This document shows, piece by piece, positions 62,889 to 62,978 of a stretch of 64,000 nucleotides of DNA. The DNA is from Escherichia coli O127:H6 str. E2348/69 (lineage in GTDB: Bacteria; Pseudomonadota; Gammaproteobacteria; Enterobacterales; Enterobacteriaceae). Position numbers and translations under genes: made by a program. The notes beneath the pieces were generated by a model. The model searched no databases. It saw nothing but the letters and a program-made list of their open reading frames with translations, and was not told the DNA's origin. The DNA is taken from assembly GCF_000026545.1 (NCBI RefSeq), contig NC_011601.1; one strand, given 5' to 3'. The stretch's first letter is position 1; every line of letters begins with the position of its first letter.

Positions 62889-62978
62889 TTACTTCAACAA
62901 ATCAATCAACCGTAACAGAGCCACTAATAACTCCAGTACGGCAATGAGCACGGTTAACTTTTGTGTCAGCGTGTCCAT
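62889..62978 (-). CDS. zorO: ZorO-like type I toxin small protein (29 aa, MDTLTQKLTVLIAVLELLVALLRLIDLLK)
   Basis: Minus-strand ORF with AAGGAG ribosome-binding site 5 nt upstream of ATG at 62978, TAA at 62889-62891; hydrophobic helical peptide; too short for the ORF track. Confidence 0.7.
   Translation of the reverse strand: MDTLTQKLTVLIAVLELLVALLRLIDLLK

Follow-up and report, generated by a model that had tools for sequence, protein, structure and literature searches.

A single-copy zor-orz type I toxin-antitoxin locus between yehK and yehL in Escherichia coli O127:H6 str. E2348/69

The spacer between yehK and yehL in Escherichia coli O127:H6 str. E2348/69 encodes the toxin ZorO and, on the opposite strand, a small RNA (sRNA) of the Orz antitoxin family; with their promoters and the zor leader they very probably form (we put the probability at roughly 0.93) a zor-orz type I toxin-antitoxin module of E. 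coli that is complete, single-copy and operates as published for O157. The locus lies near the end of the window, by which we mean the whole 64,000-nt stretch of contig NC_011601.1 (RefSeq assembly GCF_000026545.1) that was analysed. On its sequence the module is apparently functional and is a third pairing allele, a mosaic of zorO-orzO and zorP-orzP of O157. The sequence identity of the toxin, the integrity of the cis elements, the Rfam match of the antitoxin and the cognate-specific pairing potential were established here for the E2348/69 locus, and what is said of toxicity, of effects on the membrane, of processing and of a dependence on RNase III but not on Hfq is taken from the identical or near-identical locus of O157.

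Toxin, antitoxin and promoters

An initial annotation of the window had proposed a short ZorO-like open reading frame (ORF) on the minus strand, preceded by an AAGGAG ribosome-binding site (RBS). Both are present, the ORF being ATG-started and 29 codons long (62889..62978, minus strand) and AAGGAG lying 5 nt upstream of the ATG (62989..62984, minus strand), and the resemblance was, if anything, understated, as the peptide is ZorO itself and not merely ZorO-like: the 29-amino-acid (aa) product is 100% identical to ZorO (UniProt ZORO_ECO57). It is likewise identical to the synthetic full-length ZorO peptide printed in PMC6669753 (section 4.3) and to the first of the two 29-aa zor ORFs in the O157 chromosome (2738..2827 of the extracted segment), and a look-up of the exact sequence led to a cluster listed in its sources as “Small toxic protein ZorO ... 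ZORO_ECO57.” The identity with O157 zorO extends to the DNA across the whole ORF. Residues 20-24 of the product form the ALLRL motif, reported to be necessary for ZorO toxicity in the studies of the O157 locus (PMC3919570, PMC5397157, PMC6669753, PMC9860968).

By itself the ORF carries no significance, since the final 3 kb of the window are overlapped by 53 ORFs of 20 aa or more, and identity and context have to make the case: it rises above chance through its exact identity to a characterised protein and through a module that is conserved as a whole across thousands of genomes. A scan of the peptide against NCBIfam returned no family even at E values up to 10 (the Ldr, Ibs, TisB, Hok and similar models gave no match), a null result which is uninformative since the ZorO family has no model there. 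The features of the module are as follows.

62889..62978, minus strand: zorO coding sequence, ATG start, 29 codons and a stop; product MDTLTQKLTVLIAVLELLVALLRLIDLLK
63217..63297, plus strand: Orz antitoxin sRNA, about 81 nt, from the Rfam match, the fold and the alignment
63160..63187, minus strand: zor promoter, with -35 TTGCAA (63187..63182), a 16-nt spacer and -10 TATAAT (63165..63160)
63182..63210, plus strand: orz promoter, from the promoter scan, with -35 TTGCAA (63182..63187), a 17-nt spacer and -10 TATAAT (63205..63210)
62979..63152, minus strand: zor 5' untranslated region (UTR), 174 nt if transcription starts at 63152
63051..63070, minus strand: predicted Orz target in the zor mRNA, GUGCAACAUGGCGACUCAAC, at about +83 to +102, from the duplex calculation
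62984..62998, minus strand: RBS hairpin, CUCCUU (62998..62993), AAU loop, AAGGAG (62989..62984)
62840..62871, minus strand: likely terminator hairpin, AAGGGGGAA...UUCCCCCUU, GC-rich, 18 nt downstream of the zorO stop

The initial annotation had found the ORF; the antitoxin, the promoters and the 5' UTR that make the module complete had gone unreported. Rfam family RF02083 (OrzO-P) matches 63224..63297 on the plus strand with 91.5 bits against a gathering threshold of 60 (E 3.7e-15), and the model is covered over its full length (positions 1-76 of 76). The Orz gene is divergent to zorO, on the opposite strand and 239 nt from its ATG. Its 5' end probably lies at 63217, to judge from promoter spacing and the alignment to O157 orzO. 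The sRNA begins with a single-stranded 5' pairing region (GUUGGGGCGCCAUGUUGCAU), has a small hairpin in its interior and ends in the hairpin of an intrinsic terminator with a run of seven U; the predicted fold (-21.5 kcal/mol, z = -2.7) leaves the 5' end unpaired.

Other Rfam candidates were rejected: ohsC_RNA, of the shoB-ohsC system, scored 31.6 bits against a gathering threshold of 50 and aligned mainly through the terminator, and STnc370, the Thr/Trp leaders, mir-374, PtaRNA1 and V_AS5 all fell far below gathering. The weak matches at 632xx coincide with Orz, and it is apparently for the most part the Orz terminator that they pick up.

The zor promoter matches 10 of the 12 hexamer positions in the promoter scan. 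One palindromic TTGCAA (63182-63187) is the -35 hexamer of both divergent promoters, which may therefore compete for a single RNA polymerase binding site. At least 99% of zor/orz loci are reported to keep the TTGCAA and TATAAT hexamers (PMC11264685, Table 3); the hexamers of both promoters here and the AAGGAG RBS are the family's conserved set.

The zor leader and its pairing with Orz

The ATG lies 204 nt from the -35 hexamer in the E2348/69 copy and in both O157 copies. From the position of the -10 hexamer and the register with EDL933, we infer that zor transcription starts at about 63152, giving a 174-nt leader, and 174 nt is the leader length published for zorO (PMC5397157). The CUCCUU-AAGGAG stem just upstream of the ATG forms as ((((((...)))))) in both the minimum free energy (MFE) and the centroid folds, so that the Shine-Dalgarno sequence is predicted to be sequestered; structure probing places the zorO RBS in a stem (PMC5397157). 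Downstream of the ORF, the GC-rich hairpin is an inverted repeat with 13-nt arms that are 92% complementary, it forms in the MFE fold and it is kept in both O157 copies. This is likely the transcription terminator and hence the 3' end of a zor mRNA of about 310 nt: the hairpin ends 313 nt from a start at 63152, and the zor transcript of EDL933 is about 310 nt long (PMC3919570).

The fold of the 314-nt zor mRNA is stabler than those of shuffled sequences (z = -3.2), and in it nucleotides 1-7 pair with nucleotides 98-104 (numbered from 63153), inside the Orz target. In the published work, the first 28 nt of the leader mask an “exposed after processing” (EAP) region at +73..+102, which is the ribosome standby site and is also bound by OrzO; the full-length zorO leader inhibits translation, and the form lacking those 28 nt enhances it (PMC5397157). 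The target predicted here falls at the EAP region's 3' end. A conserved GGAGTG motif is described together with the EAP region (PMC5397157, PMC11264685), and in E2348/69 a standby-like GGAGUG lies at 63073..63068 (minus strand), overlapping the 5' edge of the antitoxin target.

The likely 5' end of the zor mRNA, GUUGGGA (63146-63152, minus strand), nearly repeats that of Orz, GUUGGGG (63217-63223, plus strand), and in the MFE fold its partner is the same CUCAAC within the target site; a GUUGGG start is also found in both O157 copies. Given this resemblance, the unprocessed leader may mask the standby and target region by antitoxin mimicry.

Duplexes were computed with the first 21 nt of Orz, since a calculation with 40 nt ran on into long-range pairs that are implausible. 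Over its first 20 nt, Orz can form 19 pairs with leader positions 63070..63051 (17 Watson-Crick and two G.U, with one G.A mismatch) at -32.9 kcal/mol, and this cognate duplex beats every non-cognate combination: on the E2348/69 leader, O157 OrzO reaches -23.4 kcal/mol and is thus predicted to be a poor partner, and OrzP reaches -21.3 kcal/mol, whereas E2348/69 Orz on the O157 leaders gives -20.8 (zorO) and -27.5 kcal/mol (zorP). From allele to allele, the pairing region of the leader varies in step with that of Orz, and this joint change of target and antitoxin 5' end lends evolutionary support to the RNA-RNA interaction. For repression, the published rule asks for 15 continuous pairs, or at least 17 paired nucleotides with one internal mismatch (PMC3919570). 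The longest uninterrupted helix of the cognate duplex is 13 pairs, and the pairing falls within the second form of the rule, at its minimum (exactly 17) when the G.U pairs are left uncounted.

A related allele is found in copy 1 of strain Ec-FL1-1X (around 1503 of the extracted segment), where the leader target is that of E2348/69 and the Orz 5' end differs at four positions (GUUGAGAUGCCAUGUUGCAC); this Orz pairs slightly better, with 20 pairs. A comparison of the two alleles suggests that antitoxin drift is ongoing within one specificity class.

Taking these elements together with the published model, the module would work as follows. The minus-strand gene would be transcribed into an mRNA of about 310 nt with a 174-nt leader, its Shine-Dalgarno sequence locked in a small hairpin and its extreme 5' end predicted to fold back on an internal region; removal of the first 28 nt would lay open a ribosome standby site at about +73 to +102, allowing the 29-aa ZorO to be translated. 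Inserted as a single helix, the peptide would depolarise the inner membrane, lower ATP and cause growth stasis. The divergent Orz of about 81 nt, transcribed from the promoter that shares the -35 hexamer, would pair through its first 20 or so nucleotides with the 3' part of this opened region; loading at the standby site would be blocked and RNase III-dependent decay of the mRNA set off, so that the toxin would stay off. Overproduction of ZorO, studied as the identical peptide behind the O157 leader, brings growth stasis, membrane depolarisation and loss of ATP (PMC3919570, PMC6669753), and OrzO rescues growth, needs RNase III and not Hfq, and can also block translation (PMC3919570, PMC5397157, PMC6669753, PMC9860968). 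Both RNAs are presumably expressed in E2348/69, and its Orz allele would repress its own leader.

Relation to other zor-orz loci

The placement of the ORF between yehK and yehL in the initial annotation is borne out by the annotations of E2348/69, O157 and four other strains. Over 831 bases, the ORF and its surroundings agree at 100% with E. coli E2348/69, an EPEC strain. At this site O157 has a tandem arrangement, zorO-orzO and then zorP-orzP, and the product of the second ORF differs by T3S (that is, ZorP); the two ORFs differ at 4 nt, with one amino-acid change. Overall the E2348/69 locus is 90.3% identical to each O157 copy. Its ORF and 3' end are O-like (98.6%), its promoter region (93.7%) and leader (92.6%) are P-like, and the middle of Orz is O-like again (76% to orzO versus 48% to orzP), whereas the pairing sequences match neither copy. 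Conservation is highest in the ORF (98.6-100%), above the leader (89.7-92.6%) and orz (77-87%). A simple deletion derivative of the O157 tandem pair, with zorO fused to orzP, was rejected, given the mosaic segments and the pairing sequences that match neither copy.

Compared with zorO-orzO of O157:H7 EDL933 (Fozo 2010; Wen, Won and Fozo 2014, PMC3919570), the toxin protein and ORF DNA are the same, and so are the yehK-yehL site, the divergent architecture, the promoter hexamers, the leader length, the RBS hairpin, the Orz length (81 nt) and the terminator. The differences are that E2348/69 has a single copy, a leader 89.7% and an intergenic promoter region 77.8% identical, its own pairing sequence (GGGGCGCCAUG versus GUACGAAAUG) and an ERIC-like element between yehK and the terminator. 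In the promoter region and leader E2348/69 is closest to the P copy, and the flank toward yehL is the same as at zorP-orzP of O157 and the orphan orzP of K-12; the O157 zorP-orzP duplex also has the geometry seen here, of 6 pairs, one mismatch and 13 pairs. However, the E2348/69 peptide lacks the T3S of ZorP, and its Orz body is only 77% identical to orzP and 2 nt shorter. The 2024 survey reports a third DNA type beside O and P, zorQ/orzQ, and also a pairing region that is highly variable (PMC11264685). The E2348/69 allele, equidistant (90.3%) from O and P and with its own pairing sequence, is a plausible candidate for this class; ZorQ is defined by A20S, whereas the copy here encodes plain ZorO. 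More distantly, tisB-istR1, shoB-ohsC and dinQ-agrB have in common with the present locus a divergent sRNA, complementarity of about 18-20 nt far upstream of a sequestered RBS and a long processed leader (PMC5397157); their toxin peptides are unrelated to ZorO and there is no membership by sequence.

The absence from K-12 claimed by the initial annotation holds for the toxin only. At this position the toxin ORF and the greater part of the leader are missing from K-12 MG1655, with a deletion junction directly after the yehK stop, but what remains at the site (about 8339-8480 of the extracted segment, equivalent to 63119-63300 of the window) is the zor promoter, a few tens of nucleotides from the start of the leader and an intact orphan orzP identical to that of O157. 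This arrangement fits the published “orz-only” state with the orphan antitoxin OrzPmg/orzPmg (PMC11264685).

The full zor-orz unit, counted when at least 80% of its 421 bp was matched, is present in 3,393 of the 5,426 complete E. coli genomes (~63%), and most of the other genomes match the orz half only; the E2348/69 allele itself occurs at 99% identity or more in 235 complete genomes, among them the type strain ATCC 11775. In a survey of 2,212 E. coli assemblies published in 2024, 25% had one copy, 42% two, about 30% orz only and 3% none, and ZorO made up 72.5% of all zor products (PMC11264685). The initial annotation had set the single copy here against the tandem pair of O157. There is indeed one copy, with no second zor or orz in the 64,000-nt window when up to three mismatches were allowed, and genomes with an identical locus carry it in one place only; but, given the survey's copy-number and ZorO shares, a single copy encoding ZorO is ordinary. 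Among the other strains, the locus is single-copy with P-type pairing in ST131, FDAARGOS_1283 and Ecol_545; there is one O-type copy in CFSAN018748, and Ec-FL1-1X has two copies. One ST131 genome, 2019_APHA (1210-1332 of the extracted segment), has an RBS-hairpin region 2 nt shorter, and an in-frame upstream GTG there opens a 40-aa ORF (MLVLRSLKGERM-DTL...) that contains ZorO.

The neighbouring yehK is frameshifted in E2348/69, where its ORFs are 62391..62576 and 62588..62707 and RefSeq marks it “frameshifted”; it is also split in one ST131 genome, and is an intact 105-aa gene in O157 and K-12. Between yehK and the module lies one further element.

62718-62824 (core 62749-62781): ERIC/IRU-like imperfect palindrome, flanked by the yehK stop and the terminator hairpin of zor

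Its terminal inverted arms are 15 nt long, and it is the sole copy in the window and is situated beyond the terminator hairpin, outside the zor transcript. Inside it lie GTGAATCCCCAGGAGCTTAC..AAGTAAGTGAC, which we take to be the ERIC1R/ERIC2 primer sites. O157 has just the two ends of the element, joined (AAGTCGCAG|CACATGCAACTTGAAG), and K-12 has none of it. The weak V_AS5 match from Rfam (28 bits against a gathering threshold of 96) overlaps this palindrome.

Alternative readings and significance

Several points weigh against a complete module operating as in O157. The transcription starts, the processing site and the terminator are placed by homology, and on the duplex model the two G.U pairs and the G.A mismatch would put the pairing at the rule's minimum if only Watson-Crick pairs count. 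A literature search on zorO in E2348/69 found nothing relevant, and no reports of expression or toxicity. The role of the family is also unsettled, multicopy zor-orz having improved growth with aminoglycosides and one copy on the chromosome having failed to do so (PMC9860968, section 2.5).

The strongest departure from the published picture would be that loci of the E2348/69 type are a functionally distinct third specificity class, whose Orz does not cross-repress the zorO and zorP leaders and whose own pairing has drifted to the minimum for repression, with a leakier toxin in this lineage as a result. We consider this improbable; if true, it would at most refine the published observation of a variable pairing region.

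Decay of the locus is a good deal harder to accept. A remnant with an intact ORF, no longer expressed or regulated and heading to the K-12-like orz-only state, could be argued from the loss of the toxin at this site in about a third of genomes, the frameshift in the neighbouring yehK, the ERIC-like element adjoining the terminator and an Orz pairing region with two wobbles and a mismatch. That element, however, lies past the terminator hairpin, so outside the transcript, and both promoters, the RBS, the start and stop codons, all 29 codons, the target site and the Orz body and terminator are intact, in an allele that recurs at 99% identity or more in 235 genomes including that of the E. coli type strain; we hold a remnant to be very unlikely.

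Slightly less credible again is a functional toxin under a weakly repressing antitoxin allele, leakier than the O157 pairs and with a basal ZorO effect, for example on aminoglycoside uptake. The count of 17 Watson-Crick pairs, two G.U and one mismatch, with a longest helix of 13 set against thresholds of 15 continuous pairs or 17 with one mismatch, leans this way, as does the Ec-FL1-1X allele with the same target and a better-matched Orz (20 pairs). Yet the predicted -32.9 kcal/mol equals or exceeds the value for the proven O157 zorO-OrzO pair (-31.3), the 6+13 geometry recurs in O157 zorP-OrzP, the survey judged 99.8% of loci to be repression-competent (PMC11264685), and the leader represses translation by itself too.

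A reading frame left open by chance between two genes, its hydrophobic peptide never made, can be dismissed: short ORFs are abundant and several overlapping frames are open here, but the peptide is exactly that of an experimentally characterised toxin, the RBS spacing of 5 nt is optimal, and no part of the locus is better conserved than the ORF, in which the paralogues differ mostly by synonymous changes.

We thus return to a complete zor-orz module of the published kind. The initial call was correct and the biology is known: ZorO, Orz and single-copy loci are already described, work on ZorO-OrzO going back to 2010 (Fozo 2010) and a survey published in 2024 having charted how it is distributed, and in how many copies, over more than 2,000 E. 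coli genomes (PMC11264685). The biological weight of the finding is accordingly small, and the residual question is the specificity and tightness of antitoxin pairing in E2348/69.

What the locus does bring out is a gap in annotation. The initial annotation held that such peptides are missed by gene callers, and this is borne out: RefSeq has no feature of any kind between yehK and yehL in E2348/69 or O157, there is no annotated feature under the zor-orz match in 40 of the 40 matches listed, and NCBIfam (release 20) holds no model for the peptide, although UniProt has an entry with the reviewed-style name ZORO_ECO57. A characterised toxin and its antitoxin RNA are thus left unannotated even though the full locus is present in some 63% of complete E. 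coli genomes, and a toxin of 29 aa is recognisable, as the first reading of this DNA shows, from the raw sequence alone.
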